Below, piece after piece: positions 2,018 to 37,290 of a DNA stretch of 64,000 nucleotides. Every line of letters starts with the position of its first letter. Position 1 is the first letter of the stretch. Below the pieces are notes generated by a model. It was not told the DNA's origin. It did no database searches and saw nothing but the letters and a program-made list of their open reading frames with translations. A program made the position numbers and the translations under genes. Source of the stretch: an uncultured Spirochaetota bacterium (GTDB lineage: Bacteria > Spirochaetota > Brevinematia > Brevinematales > JAOACQ01); contig CAVYGN010000002.1 in NCBI GenBank assembly GCA_963768055.1, positions 1,312,001-1,376,000 of the forward strand. The letters run 5' to 3'.

Positions 2018-2835
2018 AATTCATTCCTCTTGTTTAACTTTAAAGAAATGTATATCCCCGAAGCCCCTATAAGGATCATAGGAATGCATAGAACCATTCC
2101 CATCGTAAGCCAGCCCCAGGCGAGGTAGCCTAGCTGGGCGTCAGGCTCCCTGAAAAATTCCACAAATCCCCTGAAAAATCCGTAACCTAAGAAAAAAGAG
2201 GAAATTAAGAGGCCCCTGGGCTTATGTTTCAGCCTGGATATAAATAATAGTATTATGAACAGTAGAAGCCCTTCCAGGGCCATTTCGTAAAGCTGGGAGG
2301 GGTGCCGGGGAAGGCTCCCGGGAGCGTTCCGGAATATCATGCCCCATGGGACAGTTGTCGGCCGCCCCCAAAGTTCCCCGTTGACGAAATTTCCCCACCT
2401 CCCCAGAAAAAGGCAGAAAGGGACGGGAATTATGCAAATATCCGCAAAATCGAAGAAATTTTTTTTTCCGGCGGAAAGGTATATCCATCCCGAGGTAAGA
2501 ACCCCTATGAAAGCCCCATGGAAAGAAAGCCCCCCTTCCCAGATTTTAAAGATGTCCCCTGGGTTCTGCAGGTAATAGTTTAGATTATAAAAGAGAACGT
2601 AGCCGAGCCTTCCCCCGATTATCACTCCGAGAAATGTGTAAAAAATAATGTCCGAAAGTTCCGATTCGGTGATCTTTATCCTGCCCTTTTTTATCTGGAA
2701 ATAGATAAAAAAATAGGAGAACAGGAAGCCCAAAACGTACATAAGACTGTACCATCGTATGGCGAAAGGGCCCCATATCTGCAATATAAGGGGATTGATA
2801 TCAGGCTGGATTAGGGAAGCTGCGATTGGATTCAT
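2008..2835 (-). CDS. lgt: prolipoprotein diacylglyceryl transferase
   Basis: IRWYSLMY, GGRLGYVLFY, WEGGLSFHG, GRWGNFVNGELWG, RHPSQLYE, RGFVEFFREPD. Overlaps the mutL start. Confidence 0.97.
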   Translation of the reverse strand: MNPIAASLIQPDINPLILQIWGPFAIRWYSLMYVLGFLFSYFFIYFQIKKGRIKITESELSDIIFYTFLGVIIGGRLGYVLFYNLNYYLQNPGDIFKIWEGGLSFHGAFIGVLTSGWIYLSAGKKNFFDFADICIIPVPFCLFLGRWGNFVNGELWGRPTTVPWGMIFRNAPGSLPRHPSQLYEMALEGLLLFIILLFISRLKHKPRGLLISSFFLGYGFFRGFVEFFREPDAQLGYLAWGWLTMGMVLCIPMILIGASGIYISLKLNKRNELWA

Positions 2836-2910
2836 AATATTCTCCTTATGTCGCCATAATTTTAATTAATATGTTAATAATAAGTCAAAATTTATATAAC
2901 ATTTAACTAT

Positions 2911-3060
2911 AGGGCCCTTCTAATAACCGTCTTTTCACGCCGAGCAAGTCGGCACAAGGGCGGCAAGGTTTGGCCCATAGAGTTTATGCCCGTAGGGTGC
3001 GGTTTCATTACGATTTGAACATTATTTATTAATGACATAGTTAGTTTTTGGAACCGCCCT
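2911..3060. mobile_element. MITE-like element with imperfect terminal inverted repeats (family E, copy 1)
   Basis: Left end AGGGCCCTTCTAATAAC, right end GTTTTTGGAACCGCCCT. Colinear similarity to 42268-42380. Confidence 0.65.
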
Positions 3061-4905
3061 ATAGTCATTTTTCTTTCTCATCACCGGGCTCTTCGAAATG
3101 ACAGAAACGACCTTCATTTTCTGCCGTTCCTTTTTTTCCCGGTCTTTTTCCACAAAAAGCTTTTCTCCTGTAAACGGGTCGGTCCCGGTATAATACATGA
3201 CTGTCGAATAAGTAGAAGGCGTCGGGGTGAATATCTGGACCTGTTCGGGCCTGATGTGCAGCCCCTTTGATATGGAAATGCTTAAATTTCTCATCGAGGC
3301 TTCAGTGCACCCGGGATGGGCGGCGATGAAGTAATAAGTCAGAAACTGTTTTCTTCCCGTTTCATTATTTATACGGTCGAAAATATTTTTAAAAGAGATT
3401 ATTTTATCCCAGCCCGGCTTTCCCATAAGAGACAGAACACTGTCATCGCAGTGTTCGGGGGCAAGTTTCATCTGCCCTGACGTATGATCTTTAATCAAAA
3501 TCCTGAGATAGTCTTCGCCGTATTTCCTGTCAAGCAACACAAGGTCATGGCGGATTCCCGAAGTCACGAAAACATTGAAATTTCTTCCCTTTTCAGTTTT
3601 CATTTCTTTTAATTTCTTTAAGAGGCCGATCTGATTCTTATGTGAAAGCTTCAAATTCGGGCATGGCCGGGGAAAAAGGCAGGACCCGGATTCGCAGCCC
3701 GGGAGATCAGGCGGGCGGTTGCAGCCGGTGCCGTACATATTAGCCGTCGGGCCGCCGGCAAGCTGCAGCGTTCCCCTGAAATAAGGGTGTTTAATAAAGG
3801 AAGCCGCTTCTTTCAATATGGAATCCTCGCTCCTTGAAACGACGGTCCTGCCCTGGTGTACGGAAATGGAACAAAAACGGCATCCCCCGTAGCACCCCCG
3901 GTGTGTGGCGATTGAAAACCTTATAGTTTCAATAGCGCGCACCTCGCCCATTTTTTTATAAAAAGGATGTACGTCTCGTTCATAACCGATATTATAAACC
4001 TCGTCGAGTTCCTCTCCTGTTGAAGGCGGTGAAGGGGGATTATGAACCAGGAACCTGTTCCCGGTTCTCTGGAGAAGGCCTGTGCTGCTTAAATCTCCGC
4101 AATTAGAATAAAAAATCCTGAACATATCGATGAATTTCTGCTTGTCTTGAAGCACCTCATCGTAATCCGGCAGCCTTATGTAATCCTTAAAAATACCTGT
4201 TTCCTTTTCACCTGAAATAAAACATATCCCTTTGATATCGTTCCAGGGCTTATTATCTTTCAAGCGCTCTGCGAGAAGAACGGCCTGCTTTTCTCCCATT
4301 CCGTAGATTAGAATGTCGGCCTTTGAATCGAATAAAACCGGCCTTCTTATCGCATCGTCCCAGTAGTCGTAATGAGCAATACGGCGGAGGCTGGCTTCGA
4401 TCCCGCCGAGCACGATAGGCTTTGTATTTTTGTAATACCTTCTTATAAGGTTAACGTAGGCGATGAGAGCCCTGTCCGGTCTTTTATTATTAATGCCGCA
4501 GGGTGTAAAATCGTCGGTGCGTCTTTTTTTTAAAGAAGGTGTGTAATTTGCGACCATGGAATCGACACAACCTGCGCTTACGCCCCAGTAAAGCGAGGGT
4601 TCTCCCAGCCTGGTAATATCTCCGGGGCTTTTTATATCCGGCTGGGAAATAATTCCAACCCTAAAGCCTTTTTTAATGAGAAGTTGGCCGATTATGGCGC
4701 ATCCGTCGAAAGGACTGTCAATGTATGCGTCGCCGCTGACAAGGATAATATCAAGGGTTTTCCAGCCCAACCCGGCGAGCTCTTCAGGTGTTGTCGGTAT
4801 GAACATAATAATCTCTATCAGCATTTTAGCATTATATTGCTGAAATTGAAAGAAACCGAATTGTTTAGTTCGACCGCAGAAAATTAACCTCCGATTTTGT
4901 TGCAA
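3022..4905 (-). CDS. YgiQ/UPF0313-family radical SAM protein (likely start ATG at 4806)
   Basis: DIILVSGDAYIDSP, GGIEASLRRIAHYDYW, HRGCYGGCRFC (CxxxCxxC), LAPEH, YFIAAHPG, EQVQIFTPTP. Confidence 0.92.
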   Translation of the reverse strand: MQQNRRLIFCGRTKQFGFFQFQQYNAKMLIEIIMFIPTTPEELAGLGWKTLDIILVSGDAYIDSPFDGCAIIGQLLIKKGFRVGIISQPDIKSPGDITRLGEPSLYWGVSAGCVDSMVANYTPSLKKRRTDDFTPCGINNKRPDRALIAYVNLIRRYYKNTKPIVLGGIEASLRRIAHYDYWDDAIRRPVLFDSKADILIYGMGEKQAVLLAERLKDNKPWNDIKGICFISGEKETGIFKDYIRLPDYDEVLQDKQKFIDMFRIFYSNCGDLSSTGLLQRTGNRFLVHNPPSPPSTGEELDEVYNIGYERDVHPFYKKMGEVRAIETIRFSIATHRGCYGGCRFCSISVHQGRTVVSRSEDSILKEAASFIKHPYFRGTLQLAGGPTANMYGTGCNRPPDLPGCESGSCLFPRPCPNLKLSHKNQIGLLKKLKEMKTEKGRNFNVFVTSGIRHDLVLLDRKYGEDYLRILIKDHTSGQMKLAPEHCDDSVLSLMGKPGWDKIISFKNIFDRINNETGRKQFLTYYFIAAHPGCTEASMRNLSISISKGLHIRPEQVQIFTPTPSTYSTVMYYTGTDPFTGEKLFVEKDREKKERQKMKVVSVISKSPVMRKKNDYRAVPKTNYVINK

Positions 4906-13558: not shown

Positions 13559-14896
13559 ATGAAATTGCTTATTGTAGACGACAACGAAGATGTAATTTCA
13601 AGTTTAAAAGGCGTATTCGGAGAATATGATATAGTAGGGGCGGATTCAATAAAAAATGCGAAAAAGATACTGGCTCTGGATAGCGATTCAATCGATATAG
13701 CAGTCATAGATATGAAGCTCGGGGATGAGGATGGGATAGAGCTCCTGAATGATATAAAACTGAGGTTTCCATTCATCGAGTGTGTAATGATATCGGGTTA
13801 TTCCAGTGTTGAAAAAGCTGTACTTTCTATAAAAATGGGAGCCTTTGACTTCGTTGAGAAGCCGATATCCTATCAAAAAATGAAGGTGGTTATCAATAAT
13901 GCGATAGAACATAAAATGTTTTCTACTCTTTTAAAAAAAGAAATGGAAAGGTATAAAATCATAGGGGAATCAAGCGCTGTCAAAAAGATGAACGATTTGA
14001 TAGAAAAGGCTTCCCAGATCGATTTTCCCGTGCTTATTACCGGGGAAAGCGGGGTAGGCAAGGAGCATGTCGCCCATCTGATACACCTGAAGAGTAAACG
14101 AGGAAAAAATGAAATGATAAAGCAGAATTGTGCGGCTATCCCGGAAAATCTGTTTGAAAGCGAACTATTCGGGCATGAAAAAGGTGCTTTCACCGGCGCG
14201 GCTTCGGCAAGAAAAGGAAAACTGGAGCTTGCCAGCCTGGGCACTCTCTTCCTTGACGAAGTCGGAGATATGCCGCTTTCACAGCAGGCTAAACTTTTAA
14301 GGGTCCTGGAGGACAGGGAGATCACGCGTGTCGGGGGAGAATCTAAAATCAAGGTCGATTTCAGGCTTATCTGCGCGACCAACAGGAATCTGAAAGAAGC
14401 GGTTGACGAGAATAAATTCAGGGAGGATTTTTTTTACAGGATCGGGGTACTTGTTATCAATATACCGCCCCTCAGGGATAGGAAAGACGATATTAAAATT
14501 CTTGCCGACCATTTTTTAAAACAGGCCTGCATTGAAAATGGGTCCATTATGAAGACTATAAACAGCGAAGCTATGACGCTCATCTGCGAAATCCCCCTGA
14601 AGGGAAACATCAGGGAACTGAAGAATCTCATACAGAGGCTCTTCGCTTTTTCCGAGGTTGAAACAATACGCCCTGAGGATGTAAAGAATATCATGGTTTC
14701 ACAGAACAGGAACGGCGGCGACGCGATATTTCAAAAAACAATGAACTACAGTGAGGCGAAAAAACTCCTGGAAAAAAAATATATAATTACCCAGCTCTCT
14801 CTCAACAACAACAATGTCTCCCGCACAGCTATCCGTCTCGGCATATTGCCAAATAATCTTCTTAGAAAAATGAAAGACCTGGAAATCGTGCTGTGA
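13559..14896 (+). CDS. sigma54-dependent response regulator (NtrC/NtrX family)
   Basis: REC domain, GESGVGKE, ESELFGHEKGAFTGA, LFLDEVG, C-terminal Fis-type HTH. Confidence 0.95.
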   Translation: MKLLIVDDNEDVISSLKGVFGEYDIVGADSIKNAKKILALDSDSIDIAVIDMKLGDEDGIELLNDIKLRFPFIECVMISGYSSVEKAVLSIKMGAFDFVEKPISYQKMKVVINNAIEHKMFSTLLKKEMERYKIIGESSAVKKMNDLIEKASQIDFPVLITGESGVGKEHVAHLIHLKSKRGKNEMIKQNCAAIPENLFESELFGHEKGAFTGAASARKGKLELASLGTLFLDEVGDMPLSQQAKLLRVLEDREITRVGGESKIKVDFRLICATNRNLKEAVDENKFREDFFYRIGVLVINIPPLRDRKDDIKILADHFLKQACIENGSIMKTINSEAMTLICEIPLKGNIRELKNLIQRLFAFSEVETIRPEDVKNIMVSQNRNGGDAIFQKTMNYSEAKKLLEKKYIITQLSLNNNNVSRTAIRLGILPNNLLRKMKDLEIVL

Positions 14897-15173
14897 GCCG
14901 TTCAAAACAACATCCAGCTTTTATGGAGTCAATATTTATCTCGCTGGATTCGAAAACTTGAACTGCATCATCTCAAAAAGGCGGCAAGCGTTTGATTGAA
15001 TACTTTTTTAAGTTAAGAATTTTTTTATTATCTACAAGAATTGGTTAAATGTTATAAATGATCTTGGGTGAAACGCTTGCTTCGCTTTTTTTCGATGGCA
15101 GTTCTACGTTTTCTTCATAAATGCGGGATAAAAATTGACTCCATAAACAACTACATATTGTTTTGAATCCGGC
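14897..15173. repeat. long imperfect inverted-repeat element (family L, copy 1)
   Basis: Arms 14897-14993 and 15071-15173 are reverse-complementary (TTCAAAACAA/TTGTTTTGAA, TTTATGGAGTCAAT/ATTGACTCCATAAA, GCAAGCGTTT/AAACGCTTGC). 77-nt AT-rich spacer. Confidence 0.9.
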
Positions 15174-15191
15174 GGAAAGGTTAGGAGACTT

Positions 15192-15236
15192 GTCATTTCG
15201 AGCCCCTCAACGAAATGTTCGGCGACGAGAAATCTT
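15192..15236 (+). repeat. short REP-like repeat GTCATTTCGAG...CGAGAAATCTT
   Basis: Same end motifs recur at 19755-19786. Confidence 0.6.
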
Positions 15237-15305
15237 CCCATATCTTTTGCCAAAAACCCTCTCCTATGATAGAATTATCGCGAATTTTTATTCCGGGACG
15301 GTTTT

Positions 15306-16028
15306 ATGAAGGGTCTGGTTGTCATTCCTACTTATAACGAGGCGGAAAATATCAAGCTTATAGTTCCAGAAGTCCTGAAACAGGGCGACAGCTTCGATGT
15401 GCTTGTAGTCGACGATAATTCTCCCGACGGTACTGGAAATATTGTAAAAGAGATGATGAAGTCCAGCGCAAGGATACTTTTATTGGAACGTACAAAAAAA
15501 TCCGGTCTCGGGAAGGCCTATGTCGCCGGATTCAAGTGGGCGCTGGAACAGGATGCGGGTTACGATTTTCTCTGCGAAATGGACGCCGATTTTTCCCATG
15601 ATCCGGGCGAACTTCACCTTTTCGTAGAGGCGCTGAACGAGGGATACGACGCCGTCTGCGGGTCCCGCTATATCAGGGGCGTCAGGGTCCTCAACTGGGA
15701 CCTCAAGAGGCTCCTTATCAGTATTTTCGGTAACGCTTACGCGCGTTTCGCGACCGGCGTTAAACTTACCGATCTGACGGGGGGGTACAACTGCTACACA
15801 AGAAGGGTTATTGAAAAACTAAACCTGGACACGATAAGTTCAAGCGGATATTCCTTTCAGATTGAGATGAAGGCAAAAACAACCTGGAGGGGATTCAGGA
15901 TCAAGGAAGTGCCCATTATCTTTCGCGACCGCTACGAGGGAACGACGAAGATGAGCGGGGGAATAGTGAACGAAGCTATTATAAAGTGCTGGAAATTCCG
16001 GATCGATAAATGGTTCAAAAGAATATAA
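15306..16028 (+). CDS. polyprenol monophosphomannose synthase (Ppm1/DPM1-like GT2)
   Basis: VIPTYNEAENI, VDDNSPDGTG, GLGKAYVAGF, EMDADFSHDP, GSRY, GYSFQIEM. Confidence 0.9.
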   Translation: MKGLVVIPTYNEAENIKLIVPEVLKQGDSFDVLVVDDNSPDGTGNIVKEMMKSSARILLLERTKKSGLGKAYVAGFKWALEQDAGYDFLCEMDADFSHDPGELHLFVEALNEGYDAVCGSRYIRGVRVLNWDLKRLLISIFGNAYARFATGVKLTDLTGGYNCYTRRVIEKLNLDTISSSGYSFQIEMKAKTTWRGFRIKEVPIIFRDRYEGTTKMSGGIVNEAIIKCWKFRIDKWFKRI

Positions 16029-28937: not shown

Positions 28938-30479
28938 TCAGAAATTTACAGGAACAAGACCCCAAACCGAAAGCCATGCCCTTTTAAAAAAACTAAGGCT
29001 ATCCAGGGAAACGAAATAACTGAAAGGAGCGTAGAAAAGGAAAACGCAGAATATCTCCGCTAAGAAAAAAATTGAGATATTGCGTAGCATTTTGTCGTTT
29101 GTCTTCATTTCATCCCTGAAATAATACTGGAAAATCATGAAAGCCAGGAAAAAGGAAAATATCAAGGGTATAAAATAATGATATAAGTACATTACCCTCT
29201 CGATAGTCAACATCGTTGCCATGTATATAAAATAAAGTATTGTAAAATAAACCATGATATGGAATTCCTGTTTATTGCCGGCCGGAGCTTTGAATAAAAT
29301 TACTCCGCACACGAATACCGTTGCCATAATTATACCTAATAACCCGGAAAACCAGATCAGGGGATTTCCCTGGAGATATAGATATGCTACCTTGCCCCCG
29401 AATTTACTCCAGCGGTAATTGATACTTTTATACCCGAAAGGCCAGCCGAAGGGAGGGCTGCCGTTTTCATCTACCTTTGAAGGAGTCCATTTCGGAACCC
29501 CCTTTTCATAATTATGAATAAAAGCGAAATAATCCCTCAGCATAATAAAAAAATGGACAGGATTGGCTGTTTCCTTCGAGTTGAGAATAGCTCCGTATTC
29601 ACTCGAAGCAAGATAAGACCTCCCTTTCTCAACGCGGGAGGCGATGGAAAAATGAATATAAAAGGTTATGAAAAAGATAAGCAAGACTCCGGCTGCCGAT
29701 AATACGGCTTTATTTATGAAATCGGCCAAATCTTTCCATGTAATCTTGAAAGGAAGAATTAAAGGGCTGAAATCCTCATATGCGAGAAAAATAAAGAATA
29801 CAAGCAGGATGGAACTGTTGAGTTTAACGGAAATTGCTACTCCGGTTAGCAGCCCGAGTATTAAATATTCCTGCGCTTTTCTTTTGTCTTTTTTTTGAAG
29901 AAGGATTAAAAAATATAAAACAGCCAGGAGGATGAAGAAAATCTGTATGCCTTCCAGCATGGCGCCCCTCAAATGAACGAGAAGGGCGTTATCGAATAAA
30001 AAAAACGATGTGAAACCCAATGCGTAATCTACCGATACGGAGAACCGGGCCAGAATGAGAAAAAATAGAACTGCGGATAAAGCCGAGAAAAGCACGGGGA
30101 AAAAACGAACGCCGGCAAATGAATAATTGGCCGGGAAGGAATTTATAAAATCGGTGTCGAGAAATGAGGATGTATCGATATTTTTATTAGGATTTATCAA
30201 TCTTTCGCCTAGCGCTATGATCAATTTACCGAGGGGAGGGTGGGGTTCCATGAAAAAAACGCCATTAATATATTTCTGCGCCGAGGCGATGTGGTAGTTT
30301 TCATCCCAGTAAGGTCCGTCAGGGAAGCTGTAGCCGCCCACGAACTTTGTGTTTTTTGTAATTGTGTCTGTTTCGACATATACCGGCATAATAAAATAAA
30401 AAAACAGGGCTGCGGCCAGTATCAAACAGGAATATAAAAAGGAATAATTTTTTTTATTGATCTTTGATGCATTGTCCAT
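28938..30479 (-). CDS. PMT-family (GT39) polyprenyl-phosphate-mannose--protein mannosyltransferase
   Basis: WDENYH catalytic DE, EPHPPLGKLI, LYLQGNPLIW, RVMYLYHYFIPL. Multiple TM segments. Confidence 0.85.
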   Translation of the reverse strand: MDNASKINKKNYSFLYSCLILAAALFFYFIMPVYVETDTITKNTKFVGGYSFPDGPYWDENYHIASAQKYINGVFFMEPHPPLGKLIIALGERLINPNKNIDTSSFLDTDFINSFPANYSFAGVRFFPVLFSALSAVLFFLILARFSVSVDYALGFTSFFLFDNALLVHLRGAMLEGIQIFFILLAVLYFLILLQKKDKRKAQEYLILGLLTGVAISVKLNSSILLVFFIFLAYEDFSPLILPFKITWKDLADFINKAVLSAAGVLLIFFITFYIHFSIASRVEKGRSYLASSEYGAILNSKETANPVHFFIMLRDYFAFIHNYEKGVPKWTPSKVDENGSPPFGWPFGYKSINYRWSKFGGKVAYLYLQGNPLIWFSGLLGIIMATVFVCGVILFKAPAGNKQEFHIMVYFTILYFIYMATMLTIERVMYLYHYFIPLIFSFFLAFMIFQYYFRDEMKTNDKMLRNISIFFLAEIFCVFLFYAPFSYFVSLDSLSFFKRAWLSVWGLVPVNF

Positions 30480-36177: not shown

Positions 36178-36972
36178 ATGATGAGAGCTTTATGGACGGC
36201 TGCTTCGGGAATGATAGGCGAGCAGTTTCATATCGATACGATTGCAAATAACCTGGCAAATGTAAATACAACAGGCTTTAAAAAAACAAGGGCTGAATTC
36301 GAAGACCTGCTTTACCAGACCCAGCGCCTGGCAGGTACGCCCTCGTCAGAGATAAGCCAGTATCCGATAGGGATACAGACGGGCCTCGGGGTCAGGCCGG
36401 CGGCAACCCAGAAGTTCTATACCCAGGGGAGCCTCCAGAATACAGGCAACAAGCTTGACATCGCCCTTGAAGGTGAGGGTTTTATCGGTGTTACCCTTCC
36501 CGATGGAAGCAGCGCCTATACAAGGGATGGTTCCCTTAAGATAGACAGCAATATGGAAATTGTAACCTCCCAGGGTTACAGGCTCAACCCTCCGATCGTC
36601 CTTCCTGAAAACTTCGATGTCGGGTCCTTATCGATAGGCAAAGACGGCCGTGTAACCGTGAAAGTGGCAGGCAGCGATGAAGATACGGAGGTCGGGAGGA
36701 TATCACTTTACCGTTTTATCAATCCGGCAGGCCTGACTAACCTCGGCGAAAATTATGTCAAAGAAAGCCCGGCCTCGGGACCTGCAGTCGAGGGTACTGC
36801 ATCCCTTGCAGGCTACGGCATGGTCCATCAGGGTTTCCTTGAAATGTCGAATGTCAACGCGGTCCAGGAAATGGTGGATATGATCGTGGCCCAGAGGGCT
36901 TACGAGTTCAACTCCCGCGCAATCCAGACAAGCGATTCGATGCTGGGGACCGCGAACAGCCTCAAGAGATAA
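36178..36972 (+). CDS. flgG: flagellar basal-body distal rod protein FlgG
   Basis: MMRALWTAASGM, IANNLANVNTTGFK, FEDLLYQ, YTRDG, GFLEMSNV, AQRAYEFNS. 264 aa. Confidence 0.96.
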   Translation: MMRALWTAASGMIGEQFHIDTIANNLANVNTTGFKKTRAEFEDLLYQTQRLAGTPSSEISQYPIGIQTGLGVRPAATQKFYTQGSLQNTGNKLDIALEGEGFIGVTLPDGSSAYTRDGSLKIDSNMEIVTSQGYRLNPPIVLPENFDVGSLSIGKDGRVTVKVAGSDEDTEVGRISLYRFINPAGLTNLGENYVKESPASGPAVEGTASLAGYGMVHQGFLEMSNVNAVQEMVDMIVAQRAYEFNSRAIQTSDSMLGTANSLKR

Positions 36973-37222
36973 TATACTGATCAATTTATGAAGAAAATTT
37001 TCCCCGCGTAGTATTCGACAGCTTGAGCTGCTAAGGCTTAAAACAGCAGCAAGCGCTGATTGAATTCTTTTTTAATTAAAGATTATTTTAATATTTTCAA
37101 GTATCAATTGAATTAAATAAACAGTTTTTGATAGCGCTTGCCGTTGTTTTTCGCCTTGCGGTCTCTGCACTGTCTCATAAGACCGCGGAAAAATTTTCTT
37201 CAAATAGAATTGTATATTATCT
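36967..37222. repeat. long imperfect inverted-repeat element (family L, copy 2)
   Basis: Arms 36967-37057 and 37133-37222 (AGATAATATAC/GTATATTATCT, TGAAGAAAATTTT/AAAATTTTCTTCA, GCAAGCGCT/AGCGCTTGC). The 75-nt spacer is homologous to that of copy 1. Confidence 0.9.
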
Positions 37223-37290
37223 TTATTCCGGCGGAAATGTATAGATCTGGGAAAAACAGTGTAATCCGGATAATCCGTGAAATCTGTTTT

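Follow-up and report, generated by a model that had tools for sequence, protein, structure and literature searches.

A dispersed family of long hairpin repeats, often placed directly after stop codons, in the genome of an uncultured Brevinematales bacterium

The window analyzed here (the whole stretch of 64,000 nucleotides, from an uncultured Spirochaetota bacterium) carries two copies of a long imperfect palindrome, which we call L. An initial annotation of this DNA described the first copy as ~100-nt inverted arms around a 77-nt spacer, starting directly past a stop codon, and this description was borne out. Copy 1 spans positions 14897-15173, and its first base lies directly 3' of the TGA stop codon (14894-14896) of the response-regulator ORF at 13559-14896. 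Its inverted arms were detected at 14901-14993 and 15071-15167, with the innermost arms 77 nt apart, and its minimum free energy was -94.1 kcal/mol, compared with -51.7 +/- 4.5 kcal/mol in 200 shuffles (z = -9.46). The second element, which had been placed at 36967-37222 with a matching design and orientation, was also found there, with its inner arms 75 nt apart and a minimum free energy of -88.7 kcal/mol (z = -9.14). None of the 200 shuffles folded as well as either window copy, which confirmed the complementarity of the arms. The features of both loci are given below with the evidence for each; G000 denotes this genome, G001 to G004 are congeneric genomes, and G009 belongs to another genus of the same family.

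13559 to 14896, plus strand: gene upstream of copy 1, a sigma-54-dependent response regulator (ORF list; Pfam Response_reg, Sigma54_activat and HTH_8)
14897 to 14993, plus strand: left arm of copy 1 (inverted-repeat pairs, fold, family alignment)
14994 to 15070, plus strand: core (loop) of copy 1, 77 nt, AT-rich (inverted-repeat search, alignment)
15071 to 15173, plus strand: right arm of copy 1 (fold, inverted repeats, covariation)
15174 to 15186, plus strand: purine-rich tail GGAAAGG... to the right of copy 1 (alignment with flanks; missing from the empty site of G002)
15191 to 15239, plus strand: member of a second palindromic repeat family, GTCATTTCGAG...GAGAAATCT (inside a block of ~350 nt that is absent at the G002 site)
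15247 to 15275, plus strand: sigma-70-like promoter, TTGCCA-17-TAGAAT with TG, of the next gene at 15306-16028 (conserved in G002)
36178 to 36972, plus strand: gene upstream of copy 2, flagellar rod protein FlgG (flgG), with a TAA stop at 36970-36972
36967 to 37057, plus strand: left arm of copy 2, whose outermost pairs include the last codon and TAA stop of flgG
37058 to 37132, plus strand: core of copy 2, 75 nt, AT-rich (alignment, inverted repeats)
37133 to 37222, plus strand: right arm of copy 2 (fold, inverted repeats)
37228 to 37239, plus strand: conserved right-end motif of copy 2, CCGGCGGAAATG (sequence, alignments)

The two window copies showed 79% column identity. As the annotation had claimed, their spacers aligned, the arm differences that it quoted were compensatory, and a poorly paired ATTC was kept; this unpaired mismatch (ATTCGA / CTTCATAA) was conserved both in the window copies and in the family alignment. 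The arms pair outward to GCCG...CGGC at both termini, as judged from the fold, the inverted repeats and covariation, and the ends of L read GGGGCCGWTYRAWCAAYAT... on the left and ...TTGTYTTWAATYCGGC on the right. In the flank alignment, a tail with the consensus RGGAAAGGAC was kept to the right of most L copies, and this tail therefore belongs to the repeat unit rather than to the target. We considered the GGAAAGGAC tail as a ribosome-binding site and rejected this, as the downstream start codons lie 22-610 nt from the L copies. In several copies the GGAAAGGAC tail is followed by a heptamer-like motif, TGTCGACTATGGACTTTGGACT, and the 11-mer GACTATGGACT had 6 exact occurrences and 54 with at most one mismatch. 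Among metagenome read contigs (DNA, four runs), a 171-nt contig joined the end of the gene to the left arm (14758-14928) with 0 differences. Another contig jumped over 14989-15081, suggesting a copy with a different core or none; these contigs are short fragments, none of them reaching across the whole element.

Two other kinds of small repeat were seen near the window copies. The second palindromic family (GTCATTTCGAG ... GAGAAATCT), which is unrelated to L and often forms 60-110-nt hairpins, is found genome-wide, and its 11-mer had 59 exact occurrences in the genome and 155 with at most one mismatch. Further members lie around window positions 3092 (minus strand) and 19755 (plus strand), and the family was present within ~30-100 nt of the right end of L in roughly 14 of the 35 full-length copies, counted by eye. 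A short motif, GTGAAATCTGT / CACAGATTTCAC, occurs at window positions 37262-37275 and, in G004, at the copy 1 site; it recurs intergenically in the genus and may be another small repeat.

Copy 1 had been annotated as one of two copies, which was wrong. We collected the family by BLAST and iterated nhmmer searches over its own genome (3.69 Mb in 2 contigs, 94.75% complete), counting as full-length those copies that covered at least 240 of the 270 model positions. This yielded 71 non-redundant nhmmer matches, 35 of them full-length and 36 partial. The repeat unit is ~270 nt long and non-coding; no full copy lay within an ORF of at least 100 aa (0/35), and all were intergenic. The full copies had a mean pairwise identity of 66% and fell into 22 clusters at 78% identity. 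Copy 1 and its nearest relative, the closest pair of copies, were only 93% identical, so that current mobility of L is no more than a possibility.

Three of the 35 copies (G000 C1:924618-924861, C2:203361-203604 and C2:225185-225429) have an alternative core, in which a CCCGCC...GGCGGG stem around an AT-rich run replaces the canonical CTGATTGAAT... core, and the loop thus behaves as an exchangeable module. Furthermore, several partial copies consisted of a left arm (positions 1 to ~95) followed directly by a full copy, and a full copy lay at the arm/core junction of an older copy three times in the same orientation and once inverted. The right flanks at G000 C1:1308105-1308250 and C2:182346-182500 share 152 nt of homology that includes a further hairpin. 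We rejected a larger composite unit, as right-flank homology began at the first bases in this one pair of copies only (152 nt) and other similarities lay at varied offsets. A 618-nt stretch at positions 2663-3280 of locus L003 (G000 C1:~1308990-1309607) had matches at two places in G003 (93% identity) and at places in G004 (87% identity), and it also matched contig ends in G001; judging from these matches, it is a putative mobile element common to the genus.

Comparison of orthologous sites in related genomes, which the annotation had recommended, showed both window copies to be absent from them. At the copy 1 site the flanking genes are 354 nt apart in G000, compared with 5 nt in G002 and 36 nt in G003, and G004 has ~300 nt of unrelated sequence there. 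The C-terminus of the response regulator ends at the same residue in G002, G003 and G004, all of which are without the element. The spacer at the copy 2 site contained no L element and measured 26 nt in G002, 120 nt in G001 and 189 nt in G003, and the C-terminus of FlgG was unchanged in these three genomes. Two further L loci have spacers of 650-945 nt in G000, compared with 21-83 nt in relatives. The reverse case was also observed: G002 has an L-like hairpin in a 631-nt spacer, where G000 has 253 nt with no L match. Filled and empty alleles were compared at three sites, and at all three the upstream protein ended at the same residue, which indicates that insertion takes place at the base directly following the native stop codon.

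At one locus, following a lipid-A acyltransferase gene, L lies directly after the stop codon in three genomes (G000 C2:1060352-1060617; G001 C14:~67230-67530; G003 C3:~29100-29420), while the site is bare in G002 and the spacer in G004 measures 66 nt. These three copies differ in arm type. The G003 copy has different outer arms, the G001 copy gave a BLAST match over 48 nt only (85%), and the G000 copy is part of a subfamily with a mean identity of 87% among its members. Such differences would be expected if L had inserted here more than once, or if a newer copy had replaced an older one; L after the same stop codon in three species could, however, also reflect long retention rather than repeated insertion.

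We searched for L beyond this species with a covariance model of the inner 157 positions. The model matched 43 places in G000, 4 in G001, 9 in G002, 12 in G003 and 4 in G009, so that the search for further homologues suggested by the annotation found them in this genome, in three of the four congeners and in one sister genus. With the stricter filters used for this search, there were no matches in G004 or in 55 other genomes of the order, class and phylum, some of which are incomplete. A pattern scan of 185,579 species genomes (one genome each) returned 12 stretches, four of which were confirmed by the covariance model, all in uncultured Brevinematales/Spirochaetota MAGs; we rejected the other eight, in unrelated phyla and not confirmed by the model, as chance matches. 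The scan pattern is insensitive, finding 8 places in G000 (which has 35 full copies) and 4 of the 14 loci in relatives, and a miss means little. Plasmid and phage collections contained no similar DNA, and a literature search returned no publication about repeats in Brevinematales. The annotation had recognized no known family, and a check of Rfam agreed, giving no match at gathering threshold in the whole window; permissive settings returned plant miRNA-precursor models only, with 16-27 bits against thresholds of 55-200.

In the copies of relatives the inner stems are kept, the inner helix is longer and the AT-rich loop is different, and in G003 and G009 the outer arms are different as well. 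As the loop of relatives differs, the conserved loop motif is specific to this species. Selection on the loop sequence, which had been proposed from the two window copies, was therefore upheld within this species but did not extend to relatives with their different AT-rich loop, nor to the three copies with a different core.

The annotation had also suggested that selection acts on a long rod-like fold. We projected the copy 1 fold onto the 35-sequence alignment and observed that 79.5% of alignment cells pair and that 50 of the 75 pairs have double-sided changes. Compensated cells numbered 245, compared with 97.5 +/- 8.4 in column shuffles, none of which (0/500) reached the observed value, and with 40-89 in slid controls whose partners were shifted by 1-3 columns. 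RNAalifold independently found double changes in 16 of 23 pairs. Selection on the fold was thus supported across the family by covariation. However, this did not hold at single loci, where most private changes disrupt pairing and the two strands do not differ in how well they fold. In the three largest subfamilies (13 copies), comparison with the subfamily consensus showed that 133 changed pairs were broken, that a change on one side preserved the pair in 34 cases, and that 4 were compensated. For two of these three subfamilies, the consensus folded better than nearly all of the members (-100.6 versus -83.6 to -101.3 kcal/mol, and -104.0 versus -82.9 to -95.6 kcal/mol), suggesting that pairing is restored or selected in the propagating lineage and decays after insertion.

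The strand that folds also bears on what is selected. The reverse complement folded better in 29 of the 35 copies, with a mean of -89.8 kcal/mol versus -84.8 kcal/mol for the gene-sense strand, and G-U pairs were about equally rare per strand (121/2526 versus 141/2634); the absence of a wobble excess on one strand is unlike an RNA selected on one strand. Private substitutions were rarer in paired columns (181/2128, 8.5%) than in unpaired columns (173/1448, 11.9%), which is compatible with some weak selection for the fold in resident copies. Covariation in L is therefore real but acts at the family level: with pairs broken by private changes and neither strand favored in folding, selection for pairing operates as L spreads and is not clear at each locus.

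The placement of L relative to genes is polar. The left end lay -11 to +12 nt from the stop codon of a co-oriented ORF (of at least 100 aa) in 18 of the 35 full copies, whereas no right end abutted a stop codon (0/35; nearest 30 nt away). The expected proportion of stop-adjacent left ends was 3.2% under a per-nucleotide null (P = 3e-18) and 19% under a per-spacer null (P = 2e-5). The usual junction consists of the stop codon (TGA, TAG or TAA), then only the G-run of the element, then GCCG. In tandem gene contexts, L was oriented with the genes in 12 cases and against them in 3 (two-sided P = 0.035), and its orientation did not follow GC skew (replichores). Very short ancestral spacers may account for some of this adjacency, as at the copy 1 site in G002, where the promoter of the downstream gene begins 2 nt past the stop codon, but not for the 18-to-0 polarity. 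In relatives, 4 of the 14 loci examined had a co-oriented stop codon 62-65 nt ahead of the model start, compared with 59 nt for copy 1; placement there was measured as distance to the model start, as automatic calling of hairpin boundaries is unreliable in these genomes.

The exact, one-directional placement at stop codons is not explained by the known mechanisms of MITE, REP or ERIC elements, and it raises the alternative that L is a functional structured RNA, a 3'-UTR hairpin that serves the upstream gene as an mRNA stabilizer, RNase III site or unusual terminator, with placement and polarity reflecting this function. The 18-to-0 asymmetry, the tandem bias, the independence from replichores and the like placement in relatives are all consistent with such a role, as are the strong covariation across the family and the modest depletion of substitutions in paired columns. 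However, changes within subfamilies broke pairs 133 times and preserved them 38 times, the antisense strand folds at least as well with symmetric G-U use, and 10 of the 35 copies occupy promoter regions flanked by divergent genes. Among the upstream genes, which are unrelated and have no functional theme in common, are dnaN, flgG and genes for a Y-family polymerase, an EAL/GGDEF protein, an ABC-2 permease and a prolyl oligopeptidase. No Rfam family matched. An intrinsic terminator has a GC-rich stem, a loop of 3-8 nt and a U tract, whereas the loop of L is 75-77 nt, and no terminator-like site was found in 14700-15400 or inside copy 2. Given that copies decay after insertion and that the same genes in relatives manage without L, we consider an RNA role of the resident copies unlikely, though it deserves to be kept in mind.

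The same placement could also be read as a property of insertion. L might be a new kind of hairpin mobile element, with no target duplication and no known transposase, that homes, in a single direction, to the base directly following a genuine stop codon, and also to the junction between arm and loop in existing L copies. If so, targeting would be coupled to transcription or translation termination, or would involve an unrecognized structure-specific recombinase, and if stop placement reflects the insertion mechanism rather than selection, it would represent a novel mode of target choice. How a DNA enzyme could recognize true stop codons is not obvious, which counts against a mobile-element reading, and we regard homing of this kind as speculative and rather doubtful.

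We give still less weight to a DNA architectural role, in which the repeats would organize supercoiling through binding of a nucleoid protein or gyrase to the AT-rich core, as in BIME or RIP elements. The layout of L does resemble RIP/BIME-1, in which inverted palindromes surround a protein-binding center, the left part of the core (CTGATKGAATNCTTTTTT) is among the most conserved stretches in the copies of this genome, and pairing is symmetric on both strands. However, the core motif is not conserved in the copies of relatives, 3 of the 35 copies have a different core, 35 copies per 3.7 Mb are few for a global role, and the copies decay after insertion, which makes this role improbable.

The annotation's proposal of an invertible promoter-like core, with the arms as recombination sites and the core as a flipping promoter, can be set aside almost entirely: long inverted repeats do surround an AT-rich segment and copy 1 has one weak minus-strand promoter-like match (9 of 12), but all 32 canonical cores (fixed copies) have the same orientation as their arms, promoter-like sites do not recur at a fixed position (any one site is common to 3 of 35 copies at most, and nearly all matches are only 9 of 12), the core of copy 2 has none, the arms are imperfect and ~100 nt long where known invertons have short inverted repeats, and half of the copies lie at gene 3' ends.

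Of the three options originally offered for L, hairpin-processed mobile DNA was the best fit, given its multi-copy dispersal, the empty orthologous sites and the reciprocal filled site in a relative. No partner enzyme was found, which counts against this reading. No match to PF01797 (Y1/RAYT) was found in G000 (94.75% complete), while control genomes matched, and PF02371 (IS110) and PF07282 (TnpB) likewise had no matches in G000; G004 had 11 matches to the IS110-family domain, yet no L element. The resident insertion sequences of G000 are of what we take to be an IS3 type (16 copies, two ORFs), an IS21 type (10 copies, two IstA/IstB-like ORFs) and two IS4/5-like types (5 and 3 copies), named from general sequence features and their printed ends (examples are C1:1375174-1376202 and C2:550654-552195), and the ends of these IS3, IS21 and IS4/5-like elements were unlike those of L. 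An autonomous partner was rejected, as the segments between L ends spaced 1.5-2 kb apart contain ordinary genes and no transposases. A 16-kb region of G003 (C3:586-602 kb; L123, L128, L132) contains four L-like copies that score identically with the model, each beside a repeated 102-aa ORF, and looks like a recent segmental duplication; we considered these equal-scoring copies as a clue to a partner and discarded them, as the repeated small gene that they adjoin is not a transposase.

We also found no target-site duplication. The best shared flank word averaged 5.63 nt in L copies and 5.63 nt in mismatched controls, in a comparison that also looked beyond companion repeats, and flank words of at least 7 nt occurred at 2 of the 35 copies versus 17% of controls. 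An 8-nt flank match at the acyltransferase locus was rejected as a duplication, being within chance.

Taken as a whole, we think it probable that L is a non-coding, non-autonomous, MITE/ERIC-like foldback repeat that spreads, or formerly spread, by insertion into intergenic DNA. In this model, the long hairpin would be recognized by a trans-acting enzyme, probably as single-stranded DNA or in a snap-back or cruciform form. This enzyme would leave no target duplication and would not be one of the known hairpin-using transposases; it may have been lost, or may be unrecognized. A stop-adjacent L would necessarily be transcribed as a dsRNA-like 3'-UTR hairpin of the upstream gene, which may affect mRNA decay, but as a side effect and not as the reason for the family.

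Several consequences follow for work on these bacteria. L adds a new repeat family to what is known of an order of spirochaetes that has been little studied and is mostly uncultured. In the 3' UTRs of dnaN, flgG, the sigma-54 regulator and other genes it introduces ~100 bp of double-stranded RNA, and L elements also cause breaks in the assemblies of these genomes. Selection on an element as it propagates, and not a host RNA function, can be the source of covariation in a hairpin, which calls for caution in screens for ncRNAs.

Among known systems, integron attC sites are imperfect palindromes located directly after the stop codon of the upstream ORF, in fixed orientation, that are recognized by structure and have conserved unpaired bases and little sequence conservation. 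L resembles them in starting 3' of an ORF (18/35), in being an imperfect palindrome and in its conserved ATTCGA / CTTCATAA mismatch. However, attC sites are ~57-141 bp long, have RYYYAAC (R'') and GTTRRRY (R') core sites and stand in cassette arrays beside intI, whereas L is ~270 bp, does not have RYYYAAC/GTTRRRY at its ends (compared by inspection), and occurs as single copies after conserved housekeeping genes in conserved synteny. Bacterial MITEs, of which the Correia elements of Neisseria are a classical example, are like L small, non-coding and multi-copy, with inverted ends, subfamilies and presence or absence between related genomes. They differ in having short terminal inverted repeats that match a resident IS and in having a target-site duplication; L has neither, and its inverted repeats are ~100 nt long.

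ERIC/IRU elements are described as non-coding imperfect palindromes that form one long stem-loop, occur dispersed between genes without encoding a transposase, are often co-transcribed with their neighbors and can touch gene 3' ends (PMC2759123). ERIC is 127 bp long, with TA at its ends and with TA duplicated on insertion (PMC2759123). ERIC/IRU (RU-1) and the related enterobacterial RU-2/YPAL repeats are like L in being non-coding intergenic palindromes with a single long stem-loop and no transposase of their own. L differs from ERIC in its length of ~270 bp, its 100-nt arms and 75-77-nt loop, its lack of a duplication, its junction with TGA, TAA or TAG stop codons and a G-run, and its fixed polarity; it has no sequence similarity to ERIC, and its host belongs to a different phylum.

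REP, REPIN and BIME elements are described as extragenic palindromes located mostly downstream of coding regions, which often occur as inverted dimers that form larger hairpins, with units of 20-40 bp that carry a GTAG or CGTC tag (PMC3733652). REP elements are thought to be mobilized in trans as single-stranded hairpins without target duplication, and some families are without a dedicated transposase (PMC3733652). L has arms of ~100 nt and no GTAG/CGTC tag on inspection of its aligned ends, and its genome has no Y1/RAYT gene. L is a previously undescribed family: it is not a MITE family, since it has no target duplication and no cognate IS, not a REP family, since it has neither tag nor RAYT, and not an ERIC family, from which its size and the lack of a TA duplication set it apart.
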